DNA from: Laetmonice hystrix
Lineage: Eukaryota
Assembly (NCBI GenBank): GCA_965235115.1
Contig: OZ249436.1
Span: 18,354,001-18,418,000 of the forward strand
Length of the DNA stretch: 64,000 bases
Reading direction: 5' to 3'
The notes beneath the pieces are model-generated. The model was not told the origin of the DNA. It did not search any database and saw only the letters and a list, made by a program, of their open reading frames with translations. A program made the position numbers and the translations under genes. How positions within the stretch are numbered: the first letter of the stretch is position 1; every line of letters starts with the position of its first letter. Positions 7,149-63,709 of this stretch are shown piece after piece.

Positions 7149-7212
7149 CGTAACTTACCTGGCCGTAACCACAGCTAGCAGCACACCACACCGTATTCTT
7201 CACACCATACTT

Positions 7213-7421
7213 TTTTTTTGTACATGCCCAGACCACGGGCGCAGCATACCACGCTGCATTTTGTACATGCCCAGACCATGGGCACAGCATACCACACTGC
7301 ATTTTGTACATGCCCAGACCATGGGCAGCAGCATACCACACTGCATTTATGCCCAGACAACGGGTGCAGCATACCACACTGCATTTTGTACATGCCCAGA
7401 CCACGGACAGCAGCATACCAC
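7213..7421. repeat. ~40-bp minisatellite, ~5 copies
   Basis: unit TTTTGTACATGCCCAGACCATGGGCACAGCATACCACACTGCA. Confidence 0.9.
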
Positions 7422-7903
7422 AGGGCTTGTCCTGTGCACCTTGAAAGATTTTTGGCCTTTTTGAAAAAAAAATTAGCACTTGTACTGGTCATAATTTCCA
7501 CTTTTTTATTTTTTTTTCTAGCTGTGCTTACCCTTTTTATAAGGCGAAATTTAAAAAACATGCATTTAGCCCCAAAACACATATTTTACCAAGAAAAGGG
7601 TATAAAGCTACCACTTGGGAATGGCCATCATACTGAAACATGTGCCCCAGGTGATGATCTTTCAAAAAAATATAGTGAGCCTTTGTCTCTCGAGATGGTA
7701 CCGAAAAGTGTATTGGCCCATGGCCTAATGTACTATAACGATAATTTACGGTACGGTACCAGTGTGCAAGTGTACAAGAATTTCAAGAAGTACAAGAAGA
7801 TCTAATTCCTCTTCCTGGGGAATGGGATGATATCTATTTAATAACAATAAGAAGAATAGTGTAGTCTAATGAAATGGGATAATAAATTACTGTTTTTTTA
7901 CAG

Positions 7904-8000
7904 GCATCCACGACCAAGGAATTATGTATTGGAGAAGGATAGTAAACAATTGCCACGTGAAGAAACAAGTAGTCACCCACTTAAGGCGATCACAGTAACT
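7904..8000 (+). CDS. VPS35L: VPS35L coding exon 2
   Basis: ttttacag|G CAT CCA CGA..; (W)[32 protein letters not shown]; donor gtaagt at 8001 (alternative gtaact at 7995). Confidence 0.9.
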
Positions 8001-32000: not shown

Positions 32001-35000
32001 ATTTAATTCTTTGGATGGGGATTTGACCTATTACTCAGCAGAACTCAAATGGAATGGTATGTTAACAGGTGTAATTAGTGTAAAGGCCAATTTACGCACC
32101 AGGGCCATTAAAGTAGAATCCCGTTTCATTTAATATTCACGAGGGGGGGATGAGAAGTGTGGAGTGTGGGAGTGCGGAGGAGAAGACGCGTTACAGTAGT
32201 TTTACCTCGCTAGGCTTGCTAACTCATTAACTTCCTGTTAGTATCCAGCCAAGTCATTCAGTGGATGAGTGACATAGTCAGTGAGCTGTATTTTCGAGGA
32301 TTAAATACATCAGCCTGGAGCGAGCGTACGACGTCACAATGTCTTTATTAGGGCCTTCATCAAGCTATGAAGGCAACACAGTCAGGCCTCGGTAATCCAA
32401 ACACTTTGGTGCCGTGAAAATTGCGCACAAAGTCAGCACACGATGTCTTTCCGATCGTCAGCTGGAGGTCTGTCTGGACATACTGTCTTAGGTCTTCAAG
32501 AGATGACTTTAGATGGGCCTGTTGCCATACACACAGCTTCTTCTTCCGGATGACTGTGACTTCTGTGCTCTTCTGCTTCTGTGACATGATGATGTTTAAT
32601 CTCTGCTATGTTCTCTGTATGCTTGTTCGGCTTGAAGTGAATACTGGTTCGGATGTTGAATGGTTGTTTATAGATTCTGTCCCTTGAGCAGCCTCATGGA
32701 GAGCTGCCTATATTGTCTTAGCGCGAAGTGGTTCGTCAGGGAGCGATTAACATTCACACCTCGACCGAGGCGCCATGACCGCCTGCTGTACGGTTCAGTG
32801 ATGCATAAATTCATAGACACAAACTTATATTAAGCGTTCGTATTTGGAAACTGGGGTGTCCGGATTAGTGGGTACAAATTGAACTAAAAAAATTCTGTTC
32901 CTAAGGTTTACCATTCGGATGTTGGGGGAAAACAGATTAGTGGAGCACGGATTACCGAGGTCTGACTTTATATCAGTAAAACTACCTGTTGGCGATAGTA
33001 GCCAGTCATCCCGAGGAAGGATTGCACCCCTTTTACGTCTGCCTGTTGGGCCATGTCCTTGATGGCACGGACCTTGGAGTGCTTGTAGTACCTGACGGAT
33101 GTGGTCCTCATGCTCCTGGGGGGGGTCCTGCTAAACACAATTATGTCGTCCAGGTAGACCATGACAAATTTCCCGAGGAACGGAGCCAGCACCCCGTTCA
33201 TCAGTCGCTGAAATACCCCTGGGGCATTGCATAGGCTGAACGGCATTCGGCATTCTCCGGCATTCTCCACACTGTCGCTGTCGCGGTCGACAGGTACCTG
33301 CCAATATCCGCTCTTTAGGTCCATGGTACTAAAGGTTGTCGCGCCGGACAGGGTGTCGAAGATGTCTTGAATGTTGGTTAGAGGGTAGGCATCCTTCACG
33401 GTGACGGAATTAAGTTGGCCGTAATTGACGCAAAATCGCATGGACCCATCCTTCTTTGGCTGTAGAGTGATGGGTGGGGCCCAGGCGGAGGAGCTAGGTT
33501 CGATGATCCCTTCCGCCAACATGGCGTCGATCTCTTGATCGACCAACCATCGCTTGGAAAAGGGCAGGCGGTACAGCCGTTGCCGTATAGGTGGGTGATC
33601 GCGGGTGTCGATCCTCAAGGATACTGCATCCGTGCAGCCAGTCGGCGTACCGTCGGCGGCAAACACCTGTGGAAATTCGTGTACCCATTTGTCCAGTTCC
33701 GTCTGTGCCGCTACCACGTGCTGGTCGAGCCCCAGGGGTGACCCGTAGCGGTGTCTCTTACCTGCCAGCATCACAACTTGGTCTTTGTAGCCGATTTCAG
33801 CCTTTAATGTGCGCAAAATGTCTGTGTCGAACAGGGCGTCATGTTGTAGCATACGAGCATACGATAGTATAAGGATCAACTCCGACCTGGGATGGGTTTC
33901 TGAATCTGGGTAAGATTGATAAGATACGAGGGTCCAGGAGCAACACATGATTTTTTTAATCTTACAAAGCATGTTAGAAGGGCCTTAAAGAAGAAGATTA
34001 AGAAAATAACTATGCAGATGAGGAGCAATGGGGCCTTTTTAATCTTATTCTTTAAGGCCCTTCTAACATGCTTTGAGAGATTAAAGAATTTTGGCGTTGC
34101 TCCTGAACCCTCGTATCTTATAAATCGAACCTTTACCAAATCCATTTTGGAGTGTGTGGTTATCTAATATGACACTCGAGCGACATGTTTTGGTTAAAAA
34201 CTTGCATATACGACAGCGATTCTATTAAGAAAAATTTAAAATCTTATTATGATACCATACGATAATCATCCTCTCTTACTTCTTAAGGCAGCTGTCTAAG
34301 GCTGTCTTAGGAAGTATGAATTTTCACGTTTTTCTATCATAAAATACGATATGAAATAATGTAGAGCAAAACTTGACTTTTATTATCGTAAATTTCTTTA
34401 AAGAATGTACTAACGTATCCTGGTGCTACGGGGCCCTGGTGGTCGGAGATGATCTTATCTTGTCTTATCCTATCGTAAGCTCCAGTGACTGGGGCATTAG
34501 GCAAGCCTTGCAGCCTGGATGTTCATTAATTGATCAATATTCTGCTTCTCCAGTGCATTAACCCTGGAGGATGAAATCCGTGTCATCGGTGGACTCATCA
34601 ATGGCTTCATCCGCAGTGTACAGTTTGGCCGGGACTTTGAACAACAGCTGAGTTTCTATGTGGAAGCAAGGTCTTCATTTAGCAACATTGACACTGTGCT
34701 CATGTTCCTTGTACAGGTAAACGCCACCAGACAAGCTGGAGTTAACAATCTGGGAATAAAGGCTTGTTAATTTCTCTCATATTTCATGGTTGACACTGGA
34801 ACATCTCCATGACAATTTATTTAAATCTAGAACAATTCTGGCATTGAAAAAAATATATGGGTTGGTGCTGCCATAAGAATTGAGTTCCCAGTTGAAAGAA
34901 TTAGTCACCATCCAAATTGGAGGAAACATTGTGGTAATGGTAAAAGACTGTCTTTTTCAGCCCATTATGTAATGTTGAAATGGGAAAGATCCTGGAGGGT

Positions 35001-38000
35001 GTTTCAATAAGCACGTGGGACCGTCTGACTGGCGACGGACTGTCCGTCGCTTGGTTGTAGGGCCTGTAATGTTTGGTCCGTCGCCGGTAGGACAGTCCAA
35101 TGCACTTATTGAAACACCCCCTGAAAAGATCCATCAAAAGTGGGAACCATGTACTCTGTAGGCCAGGAAAGTCGTGTACAGTAGAGTCCCGCATAAGGAC
35201 CATCCCGCTAGTAAGACCAACAATTAAGACCAACTCAGATGTGACCACCTAATTCCCAGTCCCAAGAGGCCTGTGTGTACTCAGCACTGAGACCACAGCA
35301 GGTTTGCCCACAGCTCTAGGTGTCAACTGTCAATCACTAGGGCCGTCACTATGGTGTAAACACACTTACAACTCCAGATACCTGTTCAAACATTCATACC
35401 CCCAACTGAGTTCGAGCTGAGATTTTGTCACCTTTCTATAAAGGGGCCAAATCCACAACAGTTAGCTCTGCTGCTCTTCAGAAGGTTCAGATCTAAAGAA
35501 CTGCCAGGCAGTGTGTAAAATTAACAATGCGTCCTTCGACATGATGAATTATTTTTGCGTCGGACGCATCCAAACCTTGGACTTTTGCGCCCGTGTGATG
35601 CGCTTCAGTTCGATTCCTAGTGCGTCCATGCCAGTCAGTCTACAGGCCAGCCCAGGGCAGCCACCGCTCAGTCTGTCACAACAAGCGTGGCTTGGACCTG
35701 GCTGGCCGTGCGCTCGACCATGTCACACCGCCGACCCTCTGCACCGATGTCCGCCAGGCCGCTACTCAGTCAGTCGGCGGCCGCGGTGGTGGTCGTGGTC
35801 GTCGGGTAGGGTGATGGTAGGGGTAATGGTGTGTATGCTGCAGAGGACCCTACCGGAGGGTCTGGCTCTTGGCGTCACTGGTGGTGGTAGTGGGGTGGGG
35901 TGATGGTAGGGGTACGGGTGTGTGTGCTGTAGCGGACCCTACCCGGTCTGGCTCTCGGCGTCACCAGCAACCGGCCTGCCCTTGCCCCCCCCCCCCCCCC
36001 CCCACCTCTCCACTCCTGGCCCAAGTGGTGCTTGACCGGCCCCTCTTCCCATCGGTTACCACGGATTTCGGCCACTGGGCCAATCCAGGGCCCATGCCGC
36101 CTGCCGATGACCGCACTCCCGACGACAGTCCTCTCCCCTCCCCGGCCCGTCAGTCCCACTACGCCCCTCCCGATGGCCGTCAGAATCCACAACCAGTGCA
36201 GCATCCAAATATGAATATTGCCTCTTATGATTTACCAGGTCATAATAATGTGGTCATACTCCCACCAATGCCCCCCCCCCCCCCCCCCCCCGAGACCCCC
36301 GATTCACATAACAGCTATTAAGACCGCACTGAGACAGCAAAACGCCCAGTCCCAAAGATGGTCTCCTAAGCAGAACTCTACTGTAGTATTTTTATATGTA
36401 ACAGTTGGTCAGATGCCACAGCAGGCTGCTAAAGTTATTACTGTTTGTTTGCAGAGTGTCAACAGGTTGGCCATGAATACCAGGCAGATCGTCAAGGGGA
36501 ACCACTCTAGGAAGACGGCAGCATTTGTCAGGGTCAGTTGGCACTATTTGCTTTTTTAATAAGAAAGGTGAAATTTAGTTCAAGCAGTAATTGTCGTACA
36601 TTATTGTTTGACATATTATAAACCAAATGTTAACTACGTCACACATGGGGCTTAGTCTTCATATGGCCTTGCTTGCCACTGATGGAGGCGTTGTTTGCAG
36701 GCCTGTGCAGCATATGCTTTCATCACCACGCCTTCCCTAACAGGCGTCTTCAGTCGTCTCAACCTGTACCTGAACTCTGGGCAGGTGGCTCTACTCAACC
36801 AGTGCATGTCGCAAGGTAACTAAGGCAGTAGGTTGTATTGTACAGGTAGTGTGGAAGGACTGGCATGCACGTGATACTGAATTGTTAAGCCTGGTCTACA
36901 CGATAGGTTTTTCCCACATGTCTCTGCAATACGTTTTTCCTATAGGTCACTTGACATCCCTGTACACACGGTAGGATTATCTCATAGGTTTTAGAACATG
37001 TTCTATTTCATAGGACAAATCTTAGGGCCCGGTTTTTAGTTCGCCACTCTGAATCTTAAGATTTAAGACTAGTCTTAAATCTTATCTAAGACCAATCTTA
37101 AAATCCGGTTCGAAGTTCTTCATTCTGCCCAGTCTTAACTAAGATTAAGATTAAGATTAAGACTGACCAACACAAAACGTGACTCATACATCCTGCAAAC
37201 GGAAACGCATCACTGATGTTATCTCTCATGTGCCATTGAATCGAAAATGCTGACTTTAGTGCCATCTATCAGCTCAAGATGGTACCAGTAAACGATATTA
37301 CGACGCTAGCTAGATGATGAAACAAGTGATTTAGCTTGTGTAGTAGGCCTAACTCCACCCCTTGAATAGGCGGGCAACTGCCCCTCATCTCAAACTCAGC
37401 CATGACATGATGATAAAATAATAACATTTTGCAAGATAATACATTTGAACTGGACTACTGTTACCATCATACACTTTGATGCAGGTATTTATAAATTGTA
37501 ATTAGGGGTCTAGCCCTAATGGGGATGAGATGAGGGGCAGTAGCCCGCCGATATATCACGTGATTCATATTGATCAGGCGCGTGTCCGGGGGGGGGTCCA
37601 GGGGGTCCAGACCCCCCTGCTCCCACAGAGCATAGATTTTTTCCAAGCATTCCCGCCGTTTTGAACCCATTGAGCGATGAATTCAACACTATCTGACTGC
37701 ATTATTTTTTCAAACTTTGGATGTCGTTTTCACTGCAAATTCTCTTTGACCAGATATTCTAGTTGAACACCACTCTTCTACATACATTCATGTTCATGCC
37801 TGTGCCTAAACAAGATGATATCATGTTTTGTTACCGATGCTACATGGGTTAAATGGTCAAAGGTAGACAGAGCTCTGAGGGCATTTATATTTGCCCCCAT
37901 ATGTAAAGTCTCTTCCGATTAGGTGCTTTCATGGGCCGGCTACGGGGGTAACTAGATGTTGACAGTTCTATATTTACCGATAGTTCAAAGTATTGTTTCA

Positions 38001-47287: not shown

Positions 47288-47415
47288 TACTCGTAAACAT
47301 GCACGCTTCCAGTGGACGGACGCTGAGCATGCAGCATTCCTTCAACTGTGCAGTGCACTCATGACAGGTCCTATTCTTGCCCATCCAGATACCCGTCAAC
47401 CTTACCACCTCTATA

Positions 47416-50150
47416 GAGTCTACTGATGCCAGTTCATACTCTGTTGGGGCAGTCTTGACTCAGACAGATAAATCAGGTTTGGACAGGCCAAGACACTACC
47501 TGTCCAAAAGTCTCAATGAAACTCAAAAGAAATGGAGTACAATCGAAAAAGAGGCATTCGCAGTGGTCTATGCCTTGAAGAAGTTGAGACCCTATCTGTA
47601 TGGCGCTCAATTCACCATTTGGACAGACCATAAACCCCTCCGGGCGTTGTTTGTGAGCGAGGTCAACAACACCAAGATTCAACGTTGGGCAGCACTGATC
47701 AGTGAGAACAATGCACCAATACAGTACACCAAAGGGTCCCATAATGTTTGCGCTGACATGCTTTCCCGTTTGCCAGCTCAGCCATCTGGCCAAAGCGATG
47801 TTGCCCTCATTGATGTTGATGAGCCGTGGATAGCTCCAAACAAAGAAGTGGGAGTCGAACCCACTCAAGCATTCTGGGAATACGATGGGATTGACTACAA
47901 TGAGCTAGTTGCCCAACAACGTGCTATGCCTGAGTATGTAATGGGTAGCCAGGATGAGACAGGCTACGAGCTACATGATGGTGTCCTGTACACCCTACGT
48001 GCACCCCGCGGTTATCCCATGTACCCTCGGCTTGTGTGACCACCAACCTTACAATCTCGGGTGAGACAGAACGCCCATGAAGATGTCGGTCATCAGGGGG
48101 CAGCCAAGACTATCTCCCACCTGCTGAGGTACTACAAGTGGCCAGGCATGTGGACAGAGGTGCGGCACCATCTGCAGAAGTGTGAACGGTGTGTTATCTA
48201 TCAAGCACGACGTGAGTACCCTCCTCCATCTGACATGCCTGTAGCCCAATGTCCGGGACAAATTGTAGCATTCGATCTTTGTGGACCAATGCCAGTGTCA
48301 GACCAGGGTAACCATTATATTCTGACAGCCTTGGACCACGCCACGGGATGGGTGGATGCGCAACCCATTCCCCAGAAAACCCAGAAGTGTGTGGAAGCCT
48401 ACATTCTGAACGATTTCATCGCAAGGTATGGTGCTCCCGAAATGGTAATAACAGACCAGGGGCTGGAATTTAAAGGGAAGGTATTGGTTGACAGTTTTAC
48501 GCGCCTAAAAGTCAATCACAAACGTACCACGTCCTACCATCCCCAGACAAATGGAAGGTTAGAGCGTGCGCAAATTAGTAAACAACCAGAGTGCAAGATG
48601 GGAGGATCAGCTTGTTGCTGCTTTGTGGGCCCACCGGATAACAAGGGGCCCCAATGGATTTACCCCATACCAGCTGCAGTACGGACGTGAACCGCGGGTG
48701 CCTTTAAGTCGTTTGTTGGAGGCAGATACTGTGAACTGTGCCCAAGATTATGGTTATCGGTATGGCATCCTGGCAGATGCGTTTCAGGAAGCTGCCAGAA
48801 ATACGGCTGATAGTCGGCAGTATAATCGGATGGTCCTTGAAAAACGTGGCAGAGCAAAGGATCTCAGAGCTGGAGACCACGTTATCGTGTTGGCCCAAGA
48901 ACGAGCCCCATTAGACGCTCGTTGGGATCAACGTTACATAGTTGAGTCAGTGCGGGGACCAGTCGTCCGGATCACAAATTAGTGGACTGGCCGCCGCCAG
49001 GCTATCAATCGAGATAAATTGTTGCTTGTGGATTCCGACCTTAATTGGGATCTCACTAACCTGCGAGTTCTGCGAGGGAGACGCCCGGCACGTGTGCTAC
49101 CGGGAACACGACCCCCTCCACGTCAACAGATAAGTCCTGTACCGGATGGTGCTCCTCCTCCAGATATACCTCCTATCAGCTCACCACCTGGTACACCCGG
49201 CTCTCCGGCTTCAAGGCGGAGTCTCTCTGATGCTGATGCTAACGAGCCAATGGATGACGCCATGGAGGAGGAGGAGGCTGCTGACCACGGCATGGAGGTA
49301 GAGGATCAAATAACTGTGCCTGAGGCGGAGCCTCAGCCTAGCACCTCCACAGCATCTGGCACCACTGAGGATTACCGCAGCCGGTTGAGACCTCGAAAGA
49401 GACGGCCAGAACTCTACATTGGCGACCACCTTACCTCAGGGGAACAGGAATTGGCGAAACGACGATGTGTTCGTTTAGCCGCTCAGTTCTGTTCCTCTCC
49501 TGTTTCACGGTAGTGGTGGCCACGGTATTTGAGGATAATATGCAAAAGTCTATGATTATAAAAGTAAAATCGTGATATCAACGTCTACGGACGTGACGGC
49601 AACTACACGTTGCCCAGCAGTGGCTGCTGTTAAGACCCGAGTGCATGGACTTGCACTGATTGACATACCCCCCGGTTGCCGCCTCGAGGTTGCCGGTGCG
49701 GAAAAATATCATGCTCAGGACATTCGGTCTCATATTGCACAGTCTTGGCGGCCGGACAATATTAGTAGAGCTTCGCTGAACTTATCTTGATCCGTCGTGA
49801 ATAAGAATCTAACACTGAAAGGTCTGCACATTGTTCCCCGAGCCCCGATTAGCCACCTTCGAAAATTAACCTGGAAACCCTCTATGGAGGATGGGACCAT
49901 TCTAGCTTGGTCACCGGGTGCACACGGTGTTCCTTGGCTTGGATTGGTTGCTTTTATTTTGTCAGTTTTGAACAGCCTTTATATCGTACAGCAAAGCTTC
50001 CGTGAATGGTGGACGCGAAACCGACCTAAGGAGTGGGTTGTCCAAAGTTCCATGAAACAACACTCTCCTCCCAGTACCCCTACCGTTCTTGATATGGCTC
50101 CCGGGTCTTTAAGTTTTCCGTAGGGATACGTGAAATGGGGAGGTGTGTAG
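47416..50150 (+). mobile_element. 5'-truncated Gypsy LTR retrotransposon: RNase H, integrase, env-like remnant, PPT
   Basis: TDASSYSVGAVL, EKEAFAVVYAL, WTDHKPL; HHCC (HEDVGH..CERC), FDLCGP, TDQGLEF, YHPQTNGRLER; stops at 48037 and 48980, frameshift ~48570; purine tract GAAATGGGGAGG then TG(TG)TAG at ~50144. Confidence 0.9.
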
Positions 50151-51836: not shown

Positions 51837-53355
51837 TCAGTTGAAGACGGGCTCCAAAGAGATCGAGCAAAGTTAAGACATAAAGACTATAACCTGAATC
51901 ATTCAAAAAGTCGACGTCAGAATACTTAAGCATTGTCAGTGATTCATTGAAGCAGAATAACGGCATATAGTGTAGCTAATTTTACGCAATTTCTTTTCTT
52001 ACTGCCTTCACGTTCTCAAATATTTGTACGAACACTTGCAATGTCAAATAGATAGTCCTACAGTACGTGTCACCTACTGCAAGCCGAAATAGTAGTCGCG
52101 ATCAATAAAACAAAGATCAACTCCATGGATTCCGCCACGCACCCTCCGATTTGAAATGGATGGGTGTCATATTGGGTGTGATATATTCCTACACAGCGAG
52201 TCAAGCCGACCAGCTCAGCCGTTAAACAATATTATAAACAATAATTAACATAAAGCAAGCCTCGTATTCGACCAGTCGATTATTGAGGGGACACTTGCTG
52301 GCCCGACTTCGCCGTTATTACGATGGAATCGACTTTATGAAGTCAAAACTCGGAGAGAAGGATGGTATTGTAGGTTACATTTTATTTGTATTGTAAACCG
52401 TCGATTCCCTCCCTATAAGAGGACTCTATACAAAAATAAACCCCGTAGATCCCTTATGACGTTGAATAATTAATTACATCACATGCTAACACTACTCCGT
52501 CATAAGTCGTTATAAAGTTATGTCAAAACTCAAAAGAGTCTGATAGAATACTGATTAGCCCTATTAGATGGAGACAACATGGGCCACAAAGAAACAACTC
52601 GGAATGCCCTCCCAAATCAACCCAATCCCCCCCCCCCCCCCCCCAAAAAAAAAAAAAAAACGGACAGAAACGCTGACCCCGAGTAACCCTCCCCTTAACC
52701 TTACCCAGCTCGGAAACCCCAGCGAATGTGTACGGAGGCGTCGTGGTTATGAAATCGGTGAAATATCGCAATGTATCAAGACTACAACGTGAGGTTGCAG
52801 ATCGAATCTGTGTAGCGATGACGTAGTCGTCACTGATTGAATCACCAAAAGATTGTTTCGTCCATGCTCCAGTTTTTAAGGACGTCAGGATGGTCGTAGT
52901 CATTGATTGGGCCACTAACTTGATGTCGTTTGAGTATAGGATTAATGATTCTGTCACTCAAGAAATTTCCCCAGGTTAATTGAGACCCTAATCATACCAA
53001 AGGCGATGGTGATGAAATCGGTGAAACATCGCAAGGTATCAAGACTACAACGTGAGGTTGCAGATCGAATCTAGAGCTCTGTGTTTCGGTGGCCGCAGTC
53101 ATCATTGATTGAATCACTAATGAAATGTTCCGTATCCTACATGTTGACCTGAGCCAGCCAAAATATCATCCCTGCCAGTCAAAATTTCAATGCACACTGC
53201 GATTCTGATTCTAAGCCGCTTTGATATCTTCCCAAGTCGCTGAAATACACACTGCATGCAGAGCCATCTGCAGAGAAATGATGGAAGCGTCACCTCTTAA
53301 TTTTGAGATGACTTGAAATGGCTGGGAGATTTCCCTTCACCTACGACAAATCCAT

Positions 53356-53779
53356 CGCCATCTTGTGAGAAAGGTGGAAACTATTGCATTGGAGCCTGCT
53401 GAAGAAAGCCGAATGTGACATCATCAATGACGTCAGGTGAGATACTACCTTTAAATTCAAGGTACGTTTTAATTAAAGCAAATCTCAGTCGACTGAAATA
53501 AATTCAACTGGCTATATCTTAAAAGATATTGATCATTTTCCCCCGAAAACCAAATGTGATACCCATTGATACAAAAGGAAAACATATGACCACAAAGTGT
53601 CGAGCAGGATTCAGTTTAAAAAAATTATTTTCAAAAATGACCTGAATTTTCGCCTTCTCAGCTTCTTTCGAGCACAAGGCCTTTCGTCCCACTGTTTCAC
53701 GATAGGTGGCGCTGCATTTTGCCGATAGTGGGCCATGAACCTTACACACCCTCCCAGAAACTGGGGGTGGCGCTGTATT
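53356..53779 (-). repeat. copy 1 (inverted) of local ~430-680-bp repeat
   Basis: reverse complement of 54168-54590. Confidence 0.9.
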
Positions 53780-54167
53780 AGCCTTCATCGTCTCTCGTTA
53801 ATTAAATTCTGCCAAATGTACTATCACCAAAGCTGGTTACTCGCCGGGACAATGACTCTACGACACATCGTTACACTTAAGTTAGATATTGTAATTTAAC
53901 GTTATTTTGTAAGTCTGTCGGTGGACTGTTGCGGCCGTATCTCCTACTCGTTTCGATATTTTAGCTCTCTATGTGTAACAGATGACCCTAGAATTTCACC
54001 CATTATTTCCTTTTATTCTATTTTGTCTCAATATGTAGTTTGTTATATTTCGTGTACCCAAAATAAAGAAAAGTGCACCAGTGGCAAGCTTGAATTTAAG
54101 GAAAAGAAGACGGAAATCAGCCTTGGCATTGGCAGCCATTATAGGCCTACCACAAACAGCTGAGGCG

Positions 54168-54847
54168 AATACAGCGCCACTTCCAGTTTCTGGGAAGGGT
54201 TGTAAAATTCGCGGCCCATTACAGGCAAAATGCAGCGCCACCTATCGTGAAACAGTGGAACGAAAGGCCTTGTGCTCGAAAGGAGCTGAGAAGTCGAAAA
54301 TTTAGGTTATTTTTGAAAATCAATTTTTTAAACTGAATCTTGCTCGACACTTTGTGGTCATATCTTTTCCTTTTGTATCAATGGGTATCACATTTGGTTT
54401 TCGGGGGAAAATGATCAATATCTTTTAAGATATAGCCAGTTGAATTTATTTCAGTCGACTGAGATTTGCTTTAATTAAAACGTACCTTAAATTTAAAGGT
54501 AGTATCTCACCTGACGTCATTGATGATGTCACATCCGGCTTTCTTCAGCGGGCTCCAATGCAATAGTTTCCATGTATGTCAAAAGATGGCGCTGTATTTT
54601 TGTCAGCGCCATCTTTTGAGATAGGTGGAAACTATTGCACTGGAGCCCGCTGAAGAAAGCCGGATCCGTAACATATGTTACATCACGACACATCCTTACA
54701 CTTATGCTTCCTTTAGTTTAAAATTCCGATGTGGTCTGACAGCCCCCAACACATGGCGGATCCGATCCGGTCATCACGACGCTGTCTTTCTGAGGAAAAA
54801 TCTTGTGTTGTGAACCACTGTATATTCTATCACTGATTGGCGTTATT
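54168..54847 (+). repeat. copy 2; includes TA-CAGCGCCA..TGGCGCTG-TA unit and 133-bp palindrome 54533-54665
   Basis: direct alignment to 55682-57260. Confidence 0.9.
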
Positions 54848-55681
54848 AACTTAAACCTGGTCATATCCAACATTTTATTTTTTTTAATTTAACACTCTTG
54901 TCTGTGCCATATAGATGTTTGTATACTAGATTAACATGTGCACAACTTACGGTCAATGTGTAATTTTTAAATAAAACCAACAGAAGCCTTTATATTTAAT
55001 TAATACTCAATTTTTTGCGCCTTTTTAAACATATTAGGCCTATGCAGATCATTCCTAACACTTACCGCGTTCCCCGATCCCGCCCAATCGACAGCTTGGC
55101 TTCAGACACTAGGGCGCCGCCTGATGAGATTAGCCGACAGGAAGTGGACACTTTGAAAATCATACACACAAAAAGGACAAACGCCATACGTACTTCTCTT
55201 ACATGTTTATTGATTTCTTCAGATACTTACAGCGTCTCTGCGGGTTTGGTCACAAGGAATTCTGGTGTGTTGGAGCACACTACTAGTAAATATTTACGAA
55301 TAGAGGTCTACGGTTTTAGACATCAGATTCAGCTAGTCAGACAATTTCCTATGTTAGCGTATCCACACCGACAACAGGTTTACGTTCAACAGGTACAGCA
55401 GCAAAGCAATAACTCATCCACCTTACCAGCGCAAACGATCCATATAGGTTCAGGAAGTGCAGGTTTAGTCACGTGCACAGAAAATCCCCCGAAAACTACC
55501 AGTACCAGAGATATATCTATATATAGACGCGCAACCTTACAGTTGGGTTGTATGTGGTTTGGCTTGGGATACGAGCAGACGTGGGGTTCTCCCATTCCGC
55601 GGAACGTAGTTTCTTAGCATTAGGAAGCCTGCACTTGGGCGCGCTAGTCTTAGATCTTGTACTACGGTCGAATACAGCGAG

Positions 55682-57260
55682 TACAGCGCCACCTCCAGTT
55701 TCTGGGAAGGGTTGTAAGATTCGCGGCCCATTACAGGCAAAATGCAGCGCCACCTATCGTGAAACAGTGGAACGAAAGGCCTTGTGCTCGAAAGGAGCTG
55801 AGAAGTCGAAAATTCAGGTCATTTTTGAAAATCATTTTTTTAAACTGAATCCTGCTCGACACTTTGTGGTCATATCTTTTCCTTTTTTGTTTTTTTTTAT
55901 ACATTTTTTTATTTTTTCTACATTGATATACAATATGTACAATATACAATACACATACACAAGTACACATACATGACATACAGAGACAACAGAGTTATAA
56001 AACAAAAGGTATTATACGGCAGCTGGTGTACAAAAATTAAATATTAATATGTTCTAGTGCAGTCCAAAGGGTTCCCCATTTGTCTATAAACCTATGTATT
56101 TTGTTCATGTTAATCGATATTTCCATTTCAACTTCTAATTCGTACCTCAGTTTCTTTAAAAAAGCTGGAAGTGTCGGCGCCAGTTCCCTTAACTTTGATT
56201 GGTAAATATAATATTTTCCTAATAGCACTACTCCATTCCACGCTGTCACATGTGGACTGTAGAGCAGGTTTCCGAAAATGACATGCATTTCCGAAATTTC
56301 CATTTTGTCATCTATAATATTATTGAACCAGTGTTTCACCTGTTCCCAAAAAGCGTTAACTCTCTCACATCTATATAGCATATGGACAATTGTCTCTTTC
56401 TCCCCGTCACAAAAGGTGCACAAGTCACTGTCCTTCAGACCCATTTTTAATAGAACTGGATTTAATACTACCACATTGTGGAGTACCTTGTATTGAAATT
56501 CTGTTATCTTTTTGTTTTTCCATAAAGTGCCGTATAAGGTATAAATCTTCTTCCAAGTTTCGTCCTTTATATGATACTCTACATTGTATTTCTCCTTTCC
56601 CGCTGATTCCCGACATAACTTTTTTTGTATTAACATTCTGTATATTATTTTTGTTGACGTAGTCTCCAAAACATACGATACTTTCTTATCCCCAATTTTT
56701 CCGCTTAACACCAAACCATTTAATGCACTGTCTACAGGTGTTTCGGGGCTTGCAGGTGTTGCCTTCTGTTTTAAAACTGCGCTTACTACCCTTTTGTATC
56801 AATGGGTATCACATTTGGTTTTCGGGGGAAAATGATCAATATCTTTTAAGATATAGCCAGTTGAATTTATTTCAGTCGACCGGGCCGGAGCACCTTTAAT
56901 TAAAACGTACCTTAAAGGTGCCCCTTTCTCACCGTTTGCTGACGTCATTGATGATGTCACATCCGGCTTTCTTCAGCGGGCTCCAATGCAATAGTTTCCA
57001 TGTATGTCAAAAGATGGCGCTGTATTTTTGTCAGCGCCATCTTTTGAGATAGGTGGAAACTATTGCACTGGAGCCCGCTGAAGAAAGCCGGATCCGTAAC
57101 ATATGTTACATCACGACACATTATGTTTCCTTTAGTTTAAAATTCCGATGTGGTCTGACAGCCCCCAACACATGGCGGATCCGATCCGGTCATCACGACG
57201 CTGTCTTTCTGAGGAAAAATCTTGTGTTGTGGACCACTGTATATTCTGATTGGCGTTATT
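55682..57260 (+). repeat. copy 3, interrupted by a LINE
   Basis: resumes exactly at CCTTTTGTATCAATGGG after the insertion. Confidence 0.9.
55887..56789 (-). mobile_element. 5'-truncated Tx1/L1-clade LINE (ORF2 C-terminus, 3' UTR, A-rich tail)
   Basis: FQYKVLHN..LLKMGLKDSDLCTFCDGEKETIVHMLYRC..FW (zf-RVT CCHC); AATAAA/A tail; CCTTTT duplicated at 55881 and 56790. Confidence 0.9.
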
Positions 57261-59009
57261 ATCCCATTTCCCTTACGGGGAAATGGGATGTTGTTCTTGT
57301 GTGCGTTCGTCTTCTCTATTTTTTTTTATTTATTATCGTCGTAGTTAGACAATGGCCGTTTCTCAGCCAGTTTTCAAGGTATCTGGATGAAAATTTCATG
57401 GTAGGTTGGCCATGTCATGACTACATCTCCATATCAAGCAGTACGTCATGGGCCTTCATGCTTCCGAGTTATGACGTGTTATACACGTCAAAAAGCACTT
57501 CACATTTTCAACTGTCAAGACCAAAGAAATAGCAATAGGGTTATTATCTCTCAGATACTGGAAAATGAATGGTTCCTTAATACTTTTTTATGAAAATTTC
57601 GCTGATGACCTTTGGCCTTTTTAAGAACTGGGTCACAGGTCACTTCTCACATAAATCTACGATTTTGAAGTAGCTTTCTTTAAATGAGGGCCAAATTGCA
57701 CAGAATGATTGCTCGTAGATATGCGCAGAAGTTGTCGCATGGATTTAGCGATATGACGTATATTGGCGGAGTCGCGTGACATCAAAGTTTGATTCTGTGG
57801 CCAGTTTATCAGACATCGGTCATATCTCTGACAGTTTTCAACAGATCTTAATGAAAATTGTTGTGCTTAAAGAGGGTGGGATGATAAGCCAAATTTATGA
57901 AAAATTTCTCCTATGACGTCACTTTTTCGCGTCATGACGTCATTCATCTATCCTAGATAGGACCTTCATACTTCTAGGTCTGTGTGTCTCAATAGCTGAG
58001 TGGGTAACATACCCGACCGAAAAGCTGGAGATCGCGGGTTCGAATCCCACTTAGAGATGTCTTTTTTGTCTGAAATTTTTCGTAATCTTAACGTCGTAAT
58101 GCAAATTTTGATATTTAGAAAAAAATAGCTATATTGTCTTTTTCAATTTGATGGTCAGTCATATAAGCTAAAAGTTGGGTTCTATGGCCGTTATACGAGA
58201 AATCGGTCATATCTCTTGCAGTTTTCAACAGATCTTTATGAAACCAGTTGGGCTTAAAGAAGGTGGGATATTGAGCCAAATATATGCAATGTTCTCCTGT
58301 GACGTCACTGTTATGTGCCGCGACTCCATCCATAAGATAGGACCTTAGTACCGCTTCAGTTGTGAGTCTCAATAGCCGATTGGGTTACAGACCCGTTAGA
58401 CAGTTTGTAAATCATGGGTTCGAATCGCAATACGGATTTTTTTTTTCAACTTGATGGTCACTCATAGGACCTAAAAGAGGGGCTCTGTGGCCATTTTACC
58501 AGAAATCAATCATATCTCTTGCTGTTTTCATGAGATCTTAATGAAACTGTGCTTTTAAAGCAGGTGGGATGTTGACCCGAAATTTGGCACACAAAATTAT
58601 TGAACTACAAATTATTCTAAAAACCAACCCAATGAGTTCCCATCCACTGTGGGGTTTAGCCCAATTCTAGTTTAGATTTGTTGATATGTTATACGTTATC
58701 TAGAAGTTTCACTATTTCAATGGCTGCGAACACACAACTGAATGCAAATAAAATATGTGGGATGGTTCCTTAATACTTTTTTTTACCAAAATTTTACTGA
58801 TGACTTTTGACTTTCTTAAGGACTGGATCAGAGGTAACGTCTCACATAAATCTACGATTTGGAAGTAGATGTCTTCCTATTATCCTCGTCAAATGCGCTC
58901 TCCATATCAATCTTTGTCATGTAGCCTATGGGTCATCAGGCTTACAAAATGTCTGTATGTATTTTAGGGAACTGGGATCAATGATTGCAGGCAATCATGC
59001 TGACTAGTT
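57258..59009 (+). mobile_element. Helentron-associated (HINE/DINE-1-like) non-autonomous element, complete
   Basis: 5' subTIR+IR hairpin ATCCCATTTCCC..GGGAAATGGGAT (57261-57289), internal tandem repeats, 3' subTIR GGGAACTGGGAT (58967-78), stem-loop ATGATTGC/GCAATCAT, CTAGTT end; no TSD. Confidence 0.75.
57986..58059 (+). pseudogene. tRNA-derived cassette (A box/B box, GAA in loop) inside repeat
   Basis: TAGCTGAGTGG, GGTTCGAATCCC, T6 at 58062; stems imperfect; related copies at 58366, 59662 and 63103. Confidence 0.75.
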
Positions 59010-59965
59010 ATCGTCGTAGTTAGACAATGGCAGTTTCTCAGTCAGTTTTCAAGGTATCTGGATGAAACTTGAACGGTAGGTTGGCCATGTCAGGACTGCC
59101 TCTCCATATCAAGCAGTACGTCATGGGCCTTCATGCTTCCGAGTTATGACGTGTTATACACGTCAAAAAGCACTTCACATTTTCAACTGTCAAGACCCAA
59201 GAAATAGCAATAGGGTAATTATCTCTCAGATACTGGAAAAGGAATGATTCCTTAATACTTTTTTTATCAAAATTTCGCTGATGACCTTTGCCCTTTTTAA
59301 GGACTGGGTCTCAGGTCACTTCTCACATAAATCTACGATTTTGAAGTAGCTTTCTTTAAATGAGGACCAAATTGCACAGAATGATTGCCCGTAGATATGC
59401 GCAGAAGTTGTAGCATGGATTTAGCGATATGACGTATATTGGCGGAGTCACGTGACATCAAAGTTTGATTCTGTGGCCAGTTTATCAAACATCGGTCATA
59501 TCTCTGGCAGTTTTCAACAGATCTTAATGAAAATTGTTGTGCTTAACGAGGGTAGGATGATAAGCCAAATTTATGAAAATGTTCTCCTGTGACGTCACTT
59601 TTTCGGGTCATGACGTCATTCACCCATTCTAGATAGGACCTTCGTACATTTTGGTCTGTGTGTCTCAATAGCTGAGTGGGTAACATACCCGACCGAAAAG
59701 CTGGAGATCACGGGTTCGAATCCCACTAAAGTACGTAATTTTTATCTGATTTTTTTCGTATTCTTAACGTCAAAATGCAAATTTTGTAATTTAGAAGAAA
59801 AGTATTCAGCTATATTATATTTTTCAATTTGATGGTCAGTCATATGACCTAAAAGTTGGGTTCTATGGCCATTATACCAGAAATCAATCATATCTCTTGC
59901 AGTTTTCAACAGATCTGTATGAAACTAGTTGGGCTTAAAGCAGGTGGGATGTTAAGCCAAATTTA
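59010..59965 (+). mobile_element. second head-to-tail, truncated copy of the same element
   Basis: aligns to ~57335-58285 with scattered substitutions. Confidence 0.85.
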
Positions 59966-61184
59966 CGTTTCGTACGTTTCGGTAGGGTCAGAGATGTTGG
60001 TGCTAGGGTGGAAGATCTCTGGTAGGATGTCACTATTGTAGGTCTTGGCCTATTTGTAGTTGTCTGGGCCAGTTGTGTGGAATACGTTCTATTGGGTGCT
60101 GAACATTGCGTTAAGTTCCTGTGACTGGTGAATAGATATGTCGGGGTTGTGTTGGCTTATCAGTGATTTCAGCTTGGCGTGGTGGGTACCTGGGGACCGT
60201 CTTCTGCAGGGGTGTCCGGTCTTGTCCGAATAAGGCCTTACTGAAGGAAAAAGTTTACTGGTTTGGGGTCGGTGTTGCCCCAATATGTTGTGGTAGGTCA
60301 CATTAGGGTTTGTCTTTGTGCCGGTGAGTAGGTCGATGCAGGTTTGTGATGAGTTTAGAGACAGTCTTAGCTGGTATATCGCCCATGATAACATAAACCC
60401 CACGAAATTTGGTGGAAAGTAAAGATCCATGGCCCTGACCTTATCCCTAAACCCTAACCCCAGTCCCTATACACCTCCCAAAAACATATCCCTATCCTAT
60501 CCTTATCCCTATCCCTGACCTTAACCCTAACCCCTGCCCAAACATTTCGTGGAAAGTTATCATGGGGGAAGAACCTCTTAGCTCCACGTAGTGTGTCGGG
60601 TACGCAGTGCCCGCTTGTTCATGGGTCCTTGTCAGAAATACATTTGTACCTTTTTAGTACATCCTATTTGTGGTCGATCTGGTCGCAGCTGTGGTACAAT
60701 ACGTTGTAGGGGTTTACATGAAATACATTAAGGTTTGTCCCTGTCCTTTTGGGTAGGTATGGTCAGGACTTTCCTGACTTTAGAAGCTGTGCGAATTTCG
60801 TGACGTAGCGTGTTGGAGACTCGGTTCTCGCCCTTACATGGGTTCTTGTCAAAAAATTACCTCTTGTTAAAGTTGCCCTTAGGTGCCTTATTTCTGCTTA
60901 GTCTGGTGGGAGTTGTGGAACAATGCGTTGTTATAGTGTTACATTATGTTTTTCCCCTGGGCCTCTCGTTAGATTTGCTCAGTTCTGTTCTGGTTTCAGA
61001 AGCGGTCTTTGCGTGAGGTAGCGTGTCGGTGCTCTTGTGTCTAGCCGGTTTTCAGAAGTCCTTATCGGGAGGTGACCGGGCATGTACCTCAGTCTGAAGC
61101 AGGTTCTGTGGTTACCGTCCACTAGGACTATTTGGCTTAGACCGCAGGCTTCAGGGGTCACAGTTCGGTGGTGAGCCGTATACA

Positions 61185-61640
61185 AAGCCTGTGTCCACTT
61201 GAGCGGTATGTCGTGCGTCTTAACGCCGCGTGATACGCACAGTGAAACACGCGGCGGAATACGCGGCGGCGATGCTTGTCCACTTTGGCGTGAAATTACG
61301 GTCACTGATCATCATATCATATCATATAGGTTTGGGTTTTTCTCCACTTCTGTGATCAGATATGCTCAGTTGTTCGGTCGTCCGCCTTTCGAGACATCTT
61401 GGTGAATGGCCAGGTGCAATTCAGTGCCAACGCTTCACAAAACACGCGGCGTAATACGCGCAATAAATAGATTTTCTTTACCGAGCGTATCACGCGGCGG
61501 TGGGAGTGCGTGTTTTTTTGCCGCCACGCTCAGGTGGACACTCCTGCATTGGAATCTGTTGTTCTTTTACTAGGCGTTTTACCGCCGCGTATCACGCGGC
61601 GTTATGACGCGCGGCATACCGCTCAAGTGGACACAGGCCT
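61185..61640. mobile_element. MITE with ~55-bp TIRs
   Basis: GCCTGTGTCCACTTGAGCGGTATG / CATACCGCTCAAGTGGACACAGGC. Confidence 0.85.
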
Positions 61641-62115
61641 TTAGGCTTATGGCGCACATGTGGTATTATCCCTGGTATTGGTGCTGGTATGGGATAATAT
61701 GGTGTCATTATACATGTGATGCTACAAGTCATTCGTCTTGAATTATGTTATTATTGTATTGGGTACTGTTATTGGGTACTGTTGCGGGGTATTGTTGGGG
61801 GGGGGGGCTCTTATGGGGTGCTGGTATTGGGCCTGTTTATTGGATCCTGTTGGGTATTGTTGTTGTATATTGTTGTTGGGTACGATTATGGCCAAGTGTG
61901 GGTGTAGGCTGTTATTGGGGCGAGGTAGTGGATGGTGTTAGTAGATATTTTGGTAATGGGTATCGGGTAGCGCGTATTGTTATTGGGTAGTATTAGTGAG
62001 TATGGTTGTTGGTACTATTGTTAGCATTGGCAATGTTATTATTATAATGTTAACTGTTATCATTGATATTGTGATAATTATTATTATTATTGTTATTTTA
62101 TTGTTATTTTATTGT

Positions 62116-62383
62116 TATTATCCCATTTCCCTGACGGGGAAATGGGATTTTGATTTTGTATGGTTTCGTCTACACTATTATTATTATCCCATTTCCCTGA
62201 CGGGGAAATGGGATTTTGATTTTGTATGGTTTCGTCTACACTATTATTATTATCCCATTTCCCTGACGGGGAAATGGGATTTTGATTTTGTATGGTTTCG
62301 TCTACACTATTATTATTATTATCCCATTTCCCTGACGGGGAAATGGGATTTTGATTTTGTATGGTTTCGTCTACACTATTATT
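62116..62383 (+). repeat. 4 tandem copies (63-69 bp) of a Helentron-like 5' terminal hairpin module
   Basis: ATCCCATTTCCCTGACGGGGAAATGGGATTTTGATTTTGTATGGTTTCGTCTACAC(TAT)n at 62120, 62186, 62252 and 62321. Confidence 0.95.
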
Positions 62384-63345
62384 ATCCCATTCCCCTGTAC
62401 AGGGGAATGGGATTTTGAAGTTGTCGTGTTTGCGTGTACTTTATTATTATTATTATTATTATTGTGGTTGTAAGACAAGGGTCATATCTCAACAAGTTTT
62501 CAGAATATCTCAATGAAACTTGGCCGAACCATAGATCATGGGCCTAAGAGCTCATATCATTTTGCGTCAAGTCATATGACATACCGTCATGACGTTATGA
62601 CGTCATAAAGACGGTTTTTAAGGGCATGGAAGCCACCTCATCTTCGAGTACCAAGAGCATCTAGCCAAAAGTCATTCAAAGCAGGGCCTTAGCACTTAGG
62701 GGGCAATAATTTTCTTCATCAGTTTGACCTCTGTCCTATGACCTGTCTGACTTGAAGGTCAAAACATAGATAACAGTCAAAATGTTTCTCCTCTTTCATT
62801 TTTCGCAGACTCTTCTCCTGCTTTGGTTTATACCTTCTCCATATTGGGGCTGATCGACTGATGCCAAAATTTTTGAAATGTGACGTCATATGACCCAGTC
62901 ACCTGACATCAAAATTTGGTTCTTTGGCCAGTGTACCAGAATTAAGTCATAGCTCAACCAGTTTTCGACCGATCCCAATGAAACTTCGTGTGCTTTAACA
63001 GGGTGGGATGCAGAGCCAAATTTATGCAAATTTTCTTCAATGACGTAACAGTGACGTCATCCACCTAATTAAAATAGGACTTCAGTAGTTAAATAGATGT
63101 GATCCTCGATAGCTCAGTGGGTAATACACCCGACATAACGGCTGAAGATCATGGGTTCAATTCCCACCAAGGGCAGATCTTTTTTTTTTCGTTTTTCTTG
63201 TCACAAAGGCTGAAGATCATGGGTTCAATTCCCACCAAGGACAGATTTTTTTTTTCGTTTTTCTTGTCAGACAGTACAGCTCATCTCTTTAAATGCTTAG
63301 GAGGCCTAGGCAGGGGAAATGTTGTCATGTTTTTTTTTCTTTATT
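62384..63345 (+). mobile_element. Helentron-like element, diverged subfamily (3' end not located)
   Basis: hairpin head, (TTA)n, core motifs shared with 57258-59009, tRNA-like cassette. Confidence 0.6.
63103..63175 (+). pseudogene. tRNA-derived cassette in second Helentron-like subfamily
   Basis: TAGCTCAGTGG, GGTTCAATTCCC, T10 downstream; 3' half duplicated at ~63208-63270. Confidence 0.7.
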
Positions 63346-63709
63346 AATTTTTGATATAGAATTGGAGTACTGAGACAGTAGCGGTTTCTAACTCATTTTT
63401 CGAGTTATCTGGATGAAACTTGCAGTAAAAATTGACCACAGGAGGAATTCCTCGACTTATATAATAATACATCATGTGACACCATGACGTCATGAATACA
63501 TTATGAATAGTGCAACCTGGTACTGCACCAGGAAAAGCTATCCAGAATTCTTTTATGCCATCTTCGTGCCCCTTAGGGGTCTCTAAATGTTAAAATTCAT
63601 TTGACCTCTGACCTATGCCATTTGTCAGGTACAGATCACAGGTTTGGAAACAGTCAAAACTTTATTTATGTGGAAATGTTTTGACAAAATTGCTCACAAA
63701 ATTAAAACC

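Follow-up and report, generated by a model that had tools for sequence, protein, structure and literature searches.

SINEs, Cassandra and Helenus carry polymerase III promoters and require RNA for their movement. That tRNA heads normally define SINEs, as a preliminary description of this DNA assumed, does not hold for Helenus LTR elements, which also bear tRNA-like heads (PMC10886601), and tandem arrays are formed by Cassandra (PMC10886601, PMC7215508). DINE-1 has been described as devoid of polymerase III promoter sequences or tRNA similarity, and the word "tRNA" does not occur in the main text of the HINE and Cg_HINE papers (PMC4067079, PMC2374699, PMC7492417). In Arabidopsis, the elements of a tRNA-Cys cluster on chromosome 5 are reported as unconfirmed by three Helitron finders (PMC10701932, PMC7544208). 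Among stand-alone genes, those for 7SL, vault, EBER and 4.5S RNAs are typified by a -31/-24 box together with a CRE near -50, which raise transcription (PMC7279448).

Here we analyse a window of 64,000 nucleotides (the whole stretch of Laetmonice hystrix DNA under study) containing a non-coding, Helentron-ended element whose 160-bp monomer bears an insert of about 225 bp with a tRNA-like cassette. The chances that this cassette, in its best copies, is still a working polymerase III promoter appear to us evenly balanced.

Anatomy of the elements

The features of the locus are the following.

57260-57289 (+), 5' end of element A: a T, a 13-nt subTIR (57261-57273) and its inverted partner to 57289, forming the head hairpin
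57290-57338 (+), T-rich/TTA tract behind the head, insertion place of relatives; contig ends at 57259 and 57320 are head-inside-head joins
57333-57770 (+), first body segment (unit 0), from a core match: partial repeat core, possible fully decayed cassette (about 57524-57590), spacer
57771-57934 (+), central monomer of 160 bp (element A, unit 1): TGACGT in register, anchors 57771 and 57931 spaced by 160 bp
57935-58157 (+), 223-bp insert with cassette A1 (57986-58058), GTCA at both sides
A1 promoter parts (+): CRE 57935-57942 (-51/-44), -29 motif 57957-57963, A box 57993-58003, B box 58037-58047, T6 58062-58067
58158-58460 (+), unit 2, 303 bp: monomer and shortened insert with cassette A2 (58366-58438), proximal CRE gone
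A2 promoter parts (+): A box 58373-58383, B box 58417-58427, T10 58437-58446
58430-58585 (+), third repeat core, without cassette
58966-59009 (+), 3' end of element A: subTIR 58966-58978, hairpin 58981-58998, CTAG 59004-59007, then TT
59008-59965 (+), body of element B, headless, ended at 59965 by other repeats, with a 228-bp insert (59611-59838)
B1 parts in element B (+): CRE 59611-59618, cassette 59662-59734, A box 59669-59679, B box 59713-59723, T5 59739-59743
62110-62453 (+), five stacked heads with a 66-bp period
62459-63200 (+), body of diverged subfamily C with monomer, CRE 63052-63059 and cassette C1 (63103-63175)
C1 parts (+): A box 63110-63120, B box 63154-63164, T10 63180-63189
63202-63269 (+), 68-bp tandem duplication, through which another B box (63222-63232) and T-run arise
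63311-63520 (+), half head and body start of a further family member (57312-57398 vs 63337-63424, 74%)

Element A (57260-59009) has the complete set of Helentron (HINE) end structures. Its subTIRs, of 13 nt and thus within the 12-15 bp typical of HINEs near both ends, are identical at 12 of 13 positions in the window sequence, and at position 58972 of the 3' copy every contig covering the base carries the matching letter, which brings the pair to 13/13. The inverted-repeat structure of the head (57261-57289) and the 3' hairpin (58981-58998, an 8-bp stem) are likewise those of a HINE, as are the central repeats, the missing coding capacity and the many copies: the only frames of at least 120 aa over the elements are accounted for by one of 159 aa that spans the left junction and by the head repeats, and 891, 845, 872 and 46 contigs matched the locus in four runs of one sample. 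No Rep/helicase family was found among the 12 window ORFs scanned; judging from the family type, mobility would depend on a Rep/helicase supplied in trans.

The left junction has an empty site in a paralogous host repeat ending near 54848, and this junction together with the inner one at 59008 fits a T^T insertion without duplication; for no insertion does the window contain both host flanks. The right flank of element A is not host DNA: it is the headless body of a second copy (element B, 92% identical), so the absence of a TSD is not readable from two host flanks. At the contig end at 59010, two contigs run on into other DNA. Of the complete element with Helentron ends and no TSD that had been proposed, the ends (subTIRs, hairpins, CTAGTT) are confirmed and the flanks are not, since the right side belongs to a nest. 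For subfamily C, no 3' end was seen before the next member starts at 63311.

The repeat unit consists of the 160-bp monomer and an insert of 223-228 bp. Internal units had been put at about 380 bp; they are not uniform, measuring 387, 392 and 303 bp, and the third core carries no cassette. In unit 0, the similarity that follows the core was reached by 5/500 shuffles for the 57986 unit, 1/500 for the 58366 unit and 194/500 for the 63103 unit, and scanning this region with cassette models found no cassette.

The tRNA-like cassette

Four 73-nt cassettes in tRNA register start at 57986, 58366, 59662 and 63103. They align without gaps over all 73 columns and lie, with the same flanks, at one homologous place of the repeat unit in 4/4 copies, in agreement with the earlier proposal of a tRNA-shaped cassette in the units and in a diverged subfamily. 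A strict search for A box plus B box through the entire window gave three matches, all of them cassettes, against 0.25 in each simulated window (0.05 with the T-run); with one B-box mismatch allowed there were 11 matches vs 6.8 expected, and only the four cassettes had the T-run. The boxes are 44 nt apart in 4/4 cassettes, a spacing of 42-45 being found in 156/158 pattern matches from the bacterial and phage loci of the comparison set. Finally, a T-run of 5-10 starts at cassette position 72-78 in 4/4, whereas over the element 10-15% of positions lie within 20 nt of such a run. The retention of A boxes, B boxes and downstream oligo-T is thus upheld; the B-box change of the 58366 copy is private to that copy in the contigs spanning the site, 2-3 in each run.

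A and B boxes within a tRNA-like head are also what defines tRNA-derived SINEs, whose heads usually keep the boxes and lose the stems, just as seen here. Independent insertion of a SINE in each unit is nevertheless most improbable. Position and flanks are identical in every copy, direct repeats of at least 7 nt are absent around A1, A2 and C1 (B1 has one distant 7-mer), a SINE body or tail is absent, and the T-run directly behind the head would end the transcript. Separate SINE insertions with their own TSDs are contradicted by the one site shared in 4/4. The insert would instead have landed probably once, in an ancestor of the subfamilies, and have been copied along with the unit from then on. 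The idea that a DNA transposon amplifies a self-contained polymerase III unit within its repeat monomer fits these observations well, the cassette being fixed in a HINE-type unit and multiplied with it, with A box, B box and T-run complete.

Loss of the cloverleaf and predicted fold

The cloverleaf is broken. Over the cassettes only 42/84 cells pair (3/16 in the D stem), the Rfam tRNA model reaches 18.2 bits at 57987-58058 (model positions 1-71) vs a cut-off of 29 bits, the 59662 and 63103 copies were not among the matches listed in that search, and ARAGORN found 0 tRNA genes. The acceptor, D and anticodon stems are degraded, as previously noticed, and the cassettes do not have the four-stemmed cloverleaf of a functional tRNA gene.

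The predicted fold is a rod in 4/4 cassettes, in which the A-box region pairs with the 3' side of the B box (42/44 cells); under a looser rule such pairing occurs in 2/129 real tRNAs of the bacterial/phage set. Vault genes have a conserved CRE and A/B boxes, and their 5' and 3' regions pair around a middle that varies (PMC7058938); the cassettes, with a CRE near -50 in three of the four copies, both boxes and a terminator, could then derive from a captured vault RNA or similar stand-alone polymerase III RNA gene whose RNA is itself selected. We find this unlikely: the cassettes keep a tRNA register, covariation supporting the rod was not above shuffles (110/500), folding z-scores are -0.6 to -1.8, and the B1 fold changes when 3 nt join its 5' end. 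The Rfam Vault model was not among the matches listed for any copy (E up to 10 or up to 5); homology searches for vault RNA are described as often failing (PMC7058938).

The conserved GGGT/ACCC words could act as DNA hairpins during single-strand rolling-circle copying rather than as parts of a promoter. A 4-bp mini-hairpin (positions 17-20 with 26-29) pairs in 16/16 cells and the inner rod helix in 20/20, but as DNA the four copies fold weakly and differently (-6.4 to -10.4 kcal/mol), and the kept positions T8-C11 and T55-A58 and the upstream spacing are left unexplained. This explanation is improbable.

Upstream motifs and conservation of the promoter

Numbered from cassette position 1, a perfect CRE lies at -51/-44 in 3/4 copies (A2 has no proximal CRE) and a conserved motif at -29. 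The spacers between the upstream motifs are identical at 13/31 positions between A1 and C1, without indels, and from the -29 motif to the B box there is no indel in the four copies. Four distinct contig ends are shown just 5' of the cassette, and by hand count each of them has, at -29, the element's own motif or one closely similar to it. The CRE spacing might, with small probability, result from a lucky breakpoint, because TGACGT-type words are native to the monomer, where the register is also held before cores without cassette, and TGACGTCA is enriched in the window (16 occurrences vs 0.9 expected).

A way to see whether the promoter is maintained is to compare its positions with their surroundings. 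Taken whole, the cassette is as diverged as its flank (53/73 identical, 73%, vs 156/216, 72%), so that its retention in two subfamilies is no proof of maintenance. With only three lineages to compare, A1 and B1 being near-identical, 2/16 box columns are variable, against 84/209 upstream (Fisher p 0.022) and 31/57 in the remaining cassette (p 0.003). Between A1 or B1 and C1, 23/24 CRE and box positions are identical, the sole change being R to R, and 62-63/100 of the remaining positions of that stretch. When three blocks are drawn at random from the body, 1.0% of draws equal the score of CRE plus boxes, the CRE and -29 motif having been chosen for testing after inspection of the sequence and the cassette having been noticed through its intact boxes; two-block draws equal the boxes alone in 7.0%. 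The hint of maintenance that retention had been taken to give is thus lost for the cassette as a whole, and only the promoter positions seem to stand out, with moderate significance.

These figures also bear on a silent, neutral passenger, captured once and hitch-hiking since, whose boxes only seem kept through ascertainment and the patchy conservation of the monomer. Many body windows are conserved like the boxes (76/199 upstream 11-column windows match either whole box), decay is visible in unit 2 and probably in unit 0, Helitrons are known to carry host and transposon sequence of every kind (PMC4224331), and in Arabidopsis the majority of tRNA-Cys genes that overlap annotated Helitrons are silent (PMC10701932). 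Such a passenger would less readily account for 23/24 promoter positions kept vs 62-75% elsewhere, for the missing indels, or for the -29 spacing held in four further variants. We take it as a serious possibility, if not a probable one, and whether the promoter is maintained comes close to a coin toss.

Origin of the insert

One possible source of the insert is a miniature LTR retrotransposon of Helenus type that landed in the monomer and of which a solo LTR, now decayed, is left. This origin fits either function and would explain the ready-made promoter elements, because the upstream part of such an LTR would bring them. The A1 and B1 inserts run TG...CA over 223 and 228 bp with GTCA on either side, and removing the insert restores the monomer register. 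Animal Helenus are described as giving 4-bp duplications, in many of them the tRNA-like part is followed by a T-run, and an insert of 223-228 bp with kept boxes falls in their LTR size range of 104-323 bp (PMC10886601). Set beside the tRNA-like part of Helenus-3_CGi from oyster, the A cassette is identical at 19 of its first 21 positions and at 45/73 in all (hand count); the best of 129 bacterial/phage tRNAs scored 43 against A1. However, the insert is TGA...TCA and nearly all of the published consensus Helenus LTRs compared are TGT...ACA, those of molluscs, brachiopods and nemerteans being 104-193 bp long (PMC10886601); compared by eye, the insert flanks are unlike Helenus-3_CGi. The GTCA word is enriched twofold in the element (32 vs 15), A2 and C1 have no matching flank pair (it is found in A1 and B1 only), and primer-binding site, PPT and second LTR were not seen. 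We regard this origin as possible, on balance unlikely; alternatively, the insert may be a captured tRNA or SINE head.

Possible function of the cassette

If the promoter works, TFIIIC would bind the boxes, probably aided by the CRE at -51/-44. Since both boxes and the T-run are kept, polymerase III transcription into a short hairpin RNA, predicted at about 78 nt, is likely. The promoter of a DNA-copied element answers no known need, which counts against reading it as one; a kept promoter would point to another use, because a Helentron moves without RNA, and chromatin held open for the element's transposase or a shield against silencing are possible uses. The likeliest reason for retention would be weak selection at the level of the element: a copy to which TFIIIC and polymerase III bind would stay open and be copied more often, with the RNA probably a by-product. 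The element can do without the cassette, for the CRE is gone from unit 2 and a dead copy may lie in unit 0. Summed contig depth over A1 was 22,406 and 16,309 (run X1), similar to that of the body at 57326-57766 (6,444-24,331) and not above that of the repeat core (21,805-37,831), so no separate, more abundant cassette family shows up at 80% likeness or more.

A stronger version, in which a Helentron family took up a composite polymerase III gene (CRE, -29 box, A/B boxes, terminator) that was selected across subfamilies about 28% apart, its tRNA part refolded as a vault-like rod RNA, is conceivable and in our view doubtful. If true, TFIIIC sites and signal-responsive small-RNA genes would be scattered through an invertebrate genome. 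If the neutral explanation is right, we are looking at an unremarkable nested fossil that can give rise to false tRNA calls. The many dispersed copies at varied stages of decay make the question directly testable within one genome.

Comparison with known systems

With HINE/DINE-1, as described, the element shares the 13-nt subTIRs, 5' inverted repeat, 3' stem-loop, a probable T-rich target, missing ORF and central repeats of about 160 bp (140-180 bp in oyster Cg_HINE, about 160 bp in Pearl) (PMC4067079, PMC2374699, PMC7492417). Unlike them, its monomer bears a tRNA-like insert. Type 2 polymerase III genes (7SL, vault, EBER, 4.5SH/SI) have the same arrangement of TGACGTCA at -51/-44, a motif near -29, A/B boxes and a T-run (PMC7279448, PMC7058938), and in vault RNAs the 5' and 3' regions are paired (PMC7058938), as is predicted here; those, however, are host or viral genes with demonstrated transcripts, tested mostly in mammals, and Rfam gave no match between them and the cassettes. 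Tandem repeats from the tRNA-related region of a SINE-like element are also known as Xenopus satellite 1 and Hydromantes Hy/Pol III, but they are listed as satellites and not as the central repeat of a DNA transposon (PMC9659126). The Arabidopsis tRNA-Cys cluster is a single locus of mostly intact tRNA genes (PMC10701932, PMC7544208), whereas the element here has clear ends, belongs to a dispersed family and has lost the tRNA fold; it would be a clearer Helitron-class carrier of small-RNA-gene sequence. As in the TRIMp3 elements (Helenus, Cassandra, Ajax), what is kept of a small-RNA gene is its promoter boxes alone, with a T-run after the tRNA-like part (PMC10886601, PMC7215508). Those are LTR retrotransposons that need a transcript to move, while the carrier here is rolling-circle-ended, PBS, PPT or an LTR pair not being seen; were the composite gene real, Cassandra and Helenus would have their counterpart here among DNA transposons.

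Cassettes of probable tRNA descent

A Helentron element with a tRNA-like cassette of polymerase III promoter boxes in its repeat is real in this DNA. Its components (cassettes are 73 nt long, in tRNA register) are the following.

57260-59009, element A, a HINE-type non-autonomous Helentron
59008-59965, element B, a body without a head
62384-63270, element C, a diverged subfamily
57333-57770, unit 0 of A, its first body segment
57986-58058 and 58366-58438, cassettes A1 and A2 (units 1 and 2)
59662-59734, cassette B1
63103-63175, cassette C1

The four cassettes, proposed in the preliminary description, are well beyond chance: a strict scan of the 64 kb for A and B boxes returned three matches, all of them cassettes, against 0.25 expected. 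With one mismatch allowed the fourth was also found, among 11 matches versus 6.8 expected, and a T-run accompanied the four cassettes only. They align without gaps and have a tRNA-like spacing from A to B box. The minimal motifs of these boxes are TRGYnnAnnnG (A) and GWTCRAnnC (B), by which both are intact in all four cassettes, the 58366 copy included. Through a 68-bp tandem duplication (63134-63269), C1 is followed by another B box and T-run; the resemblance to human VTRNA1-1, which also has an additional box (PMC7058938), is probably coincidental.

The degradation of the stems was likewise borne out, half of the cloverleaf cells being unpaired. A functional tRNA gene was rejected, with these cells failing, no ARAGORN prediction and, in the covariance-model check, an Rfam tRNA match for A1 only (18.2 bits). 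Since the D stem is broken identically in all lineages, loss of the fold predates the divergence of the units. As for the parent tRNA, the best bacterial types were Thr, Met, Arg and Asn, with scores within 2 points; fish types with TAGCTC at positions 8-13 are listed in parts of PMC6685494 and PMC8869645. Minus-strand matches to the Rfam family RF04354 ('Plastid-ycf2 5UTR') were obtained for A1, B1 and C1 (15-22 bits); we read the consensus of this family as the opposite strand of a plastid tRNA (anticodon CAU), which would make the model a detector of tRNAs lying on the other strand.

The composite unit and the origin of the insert

The monomer length of the central repeat follows from two anchors spaced by exactly 160 bp in both A and B, with TGACGT in register, the size of the oyster and Pearl central repeats in excerpts of PMC7492417. 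The units had been described as about 380 bp long; two of them (387 and 392 bp) are made up of the 160-bp monomer and a cassette-bearing insert of 223 or 228 bp, and the third is a 303-bp unit of monomer plus shortened insert.

For the copies we used the window itself and the contigs of a single sample (four runs). The contig comparison drew on 40 difference rows (of 246) and 24 loose ends (of 591), and depth in it does not equal copy number. In this sample contig depth at A1 is about that at the element body and, among the 24 loose ends listed, four distinct ones at the 5' edge of A1 have the element's own motif at -29 (hand count; counted from cassette position 1). The contigs thus support insert and cassette as a family-wide feature. 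Because summed depth in run X1 (16,000-22,000) is far above that of the listed single contigs (42-99), a copy number in the hundreds, and no more than that, is suggested.

Insertion of a SINE into each unit independently is excluded by the common position of the cassettes and the lack of duplications and tails. A possible source would be Helenus, a TRIMp3-type miniature LTR retrotransposon with a tRNA-like part. With this part of the oyster Helenus-3_CGi (PMC10886601) the A cassette is identical, by hand count, at 45 of 73 positions, 19 of them among the first 21; the flanks of the insert differ from those given there, and its termini are not TGT/ACA. The insert of A1 and B1 does run TG...CA between two GTCA words, but A2 and C1 have no such pair and GTCA is frequent throughout the element. 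We regard this origin as rather improbable; most of the remaining weight falls on a captured tRNA gene or head of a SINE, with a small share for a vault-type gene.

That unit 0 holds a dead cassette is only suggested by sequence comparison. The local similarity test gave 70-887 of 2000 shuffles; the unit 0 segments of A and B gave 1-14 of 500 shuffles against A1 and A2 and 40-194 of 500 against C1. Those of C and D were not significant against the cassettes in the shuffle test, and neither HMM nor covariance model detected a unit 0 cassette.

Element ends and surroundings

The window (G+C 43%) is rich in repeats, among which the following were identified.

1209-3077, open frame of 622 aa with a C17orf113-type zinc finger
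10313-11177, minisatellite, 36 copies of 24 bp, several frames open
11465-11648 and 60373-60558, 186-bp repeat, 95% identity, with CCCTAACC-type tracts
32968-33984, 47365-48690 and 56037-56798, fragments of LTR-type reverse transcriptase, RNase H and integrase, and a LINE-type zinc-binding domain
53348-53784, 54369-54848 and 56790-57261, three copies of the host repeat; within it, arms of 62 nt (56961-57093) form a long inverted repeat
61184-61641, MITE-like element with 55-nt terminal inverted repeats, within DNA interrupting element B

By eye the 622-aa frame looks like a hAT-type transposase; Pfam named only the zinc finger.

The head of element A has a 13-nt subterminal repeat (57261-57273) inside a hairpin. 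In the tail this repeat recurs inverted at 58966-58978, before a hairpin of 8 bp and CTAG with TT behind it, in agreement with the HINE/DINE-1 ends in excerpts of PMC4067079 and PMC2374699. Every contig that covers base 58972 has the nucleotide that makes both subterminal repeats identical. The head is inserted in one copy of the 62-nt-arm repeat, which also contains TGACGTCA; the paralogue near 54848 represents the empty site, and one of the 24 listed loose ends (of 591) runs on like it. Of the complete element without TSD that had been proposed, the ends stand, and the right flank turned out to be the second body (59008-59965, 92% identity, no head) and not host DNA. Two of these listed loose ends and, likewise, five heads stacked at 62110-62453 show insertion in the tract that follows the head of a relative; the simplest reading of the A/B arrangement would be such a nest minus one head. 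Subfamily C has no tail within the window. A 3' end of this family also stands alone at 8090-8135 (minus strand), with a degenerate subterminal repeat, an identical hairpin and CTAGTT; fragments resembling heads occur near 7880 and 7828.

Promoter conservation

The retention of the cassette in diverged subfamilies had been taken as a hint of maintenance. This does not apply to the whole cassette (A1 and C1 are identical at 53 of 73 positions, and at 156 of 216 upstream) but may to the promoter positions: variable columns number 2 of 16 in the boxes, versus 84 of 209 upstream (p 0.022) and 31 of 57 in the rest of the cassette (p 0.003). A perfect CRE, the upstream motif TGACGTCA, lies at -51/-44 in A1, B1 and C1 and is lost in A2, and a 7-nt motif at -29 is present in all four. 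The genes for 7SL, vault, EBER and 4.5S RNAs have a CRE at or close to this position, and tRNA genes and SINE copies have none such, according to PMC7279448. CRE and boxes together are 23/24 identical, which random block sets from the body equal in 1.0% of draws; the boxes alone are equalled in 7.0%, and 76 of 199 body windows are conserved as much as a whole box. CRE-like words are native to the monomer, and the window contains 16 occurrences of TGACGTCA where 0.9 would be expected; 12 or more of these fall within described repeats. With few lineages, and motifs chosen after the data were seen, the sequences leave maintenance of the promoter about evenly balanced.

Predicted RNA and proposed mechanism

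Energy minimization predicts one shared rod for all four cassettes, the A-box region being base-paired to the 3' side of the B box (42 of 44 cells paired). Other tRNA-derived RNAs, such as rodent BC1, refold similarly. Under a looser rule the rod appeared in 2 of 129 real bacterial and phage tRNAs, our ARAGORN-confirmed control set, most of which already pair partly in its register. Folding z-scores are weak, the B1 fold switches on adding 3 nt 5', covariation of the rod did not exceed shuffles (110/500), and the Rfam Vault model did not match the cassettes. A2 has the sole double change affecting the rod (G15-C65 to U-A), which was set aside as unconfirmed, since the few contigs that cover 58430 read C. 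The rod agrees with the vault RNA description in parts of PMC7058938; we consider this predicted fold a lead and not a result.

By analogy with its family, the element would be copied via its ends by a Rep/helicase made elsewhere. Homology among the units suggests a single entry of the insert into the monomer, followed by tandem amplification and spread through transposition. Where a unit is intact, TFIIIC would recognize its boxes, and polymerase III would produce an RNA of about 78 nt ending in the T-run. The likeliest gain may be the element's own, if bound copies remain accessible and are copied more.

Relatives and known systems

The cassette pattern had no match in metagenome contigs or prokaryote genomes, the tail pattern and core word none in viral contigs, and the head hairpin none in viral contigs and eight loci in metagenome contigs, alike in the hairpin only (one, L004, adds three chance-level matches of 19-27 nt). 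The CRE-A-B pattern retrieved 120 prokaryote and 28 viral loci, none with element-like DNA, which yielded the 129 distinct tRNAs of the control set. Among phages, BLAST found 67 weak matches to C1, most of them at the B box; the longest covered a tRNA-Met (E 9).

In the full-text literature searched, where subscription papers are thinly covered, no description was found of a Helentron whose central repeat contains a tRNA-derived promoter; the family may be catalogued in Repbase or Dfam without comment. The nearest cases, from partial texts, include the Arabidopsis tRNA-Cys cluster (PMC10701932), whose overlying Helitrons are unconfirmed, the TRIMp3 elements (PMC10886601), tRNA-related satellites (PMC9659126, table) and bat Helitrons that carry retrotransposons (PMC4224331).
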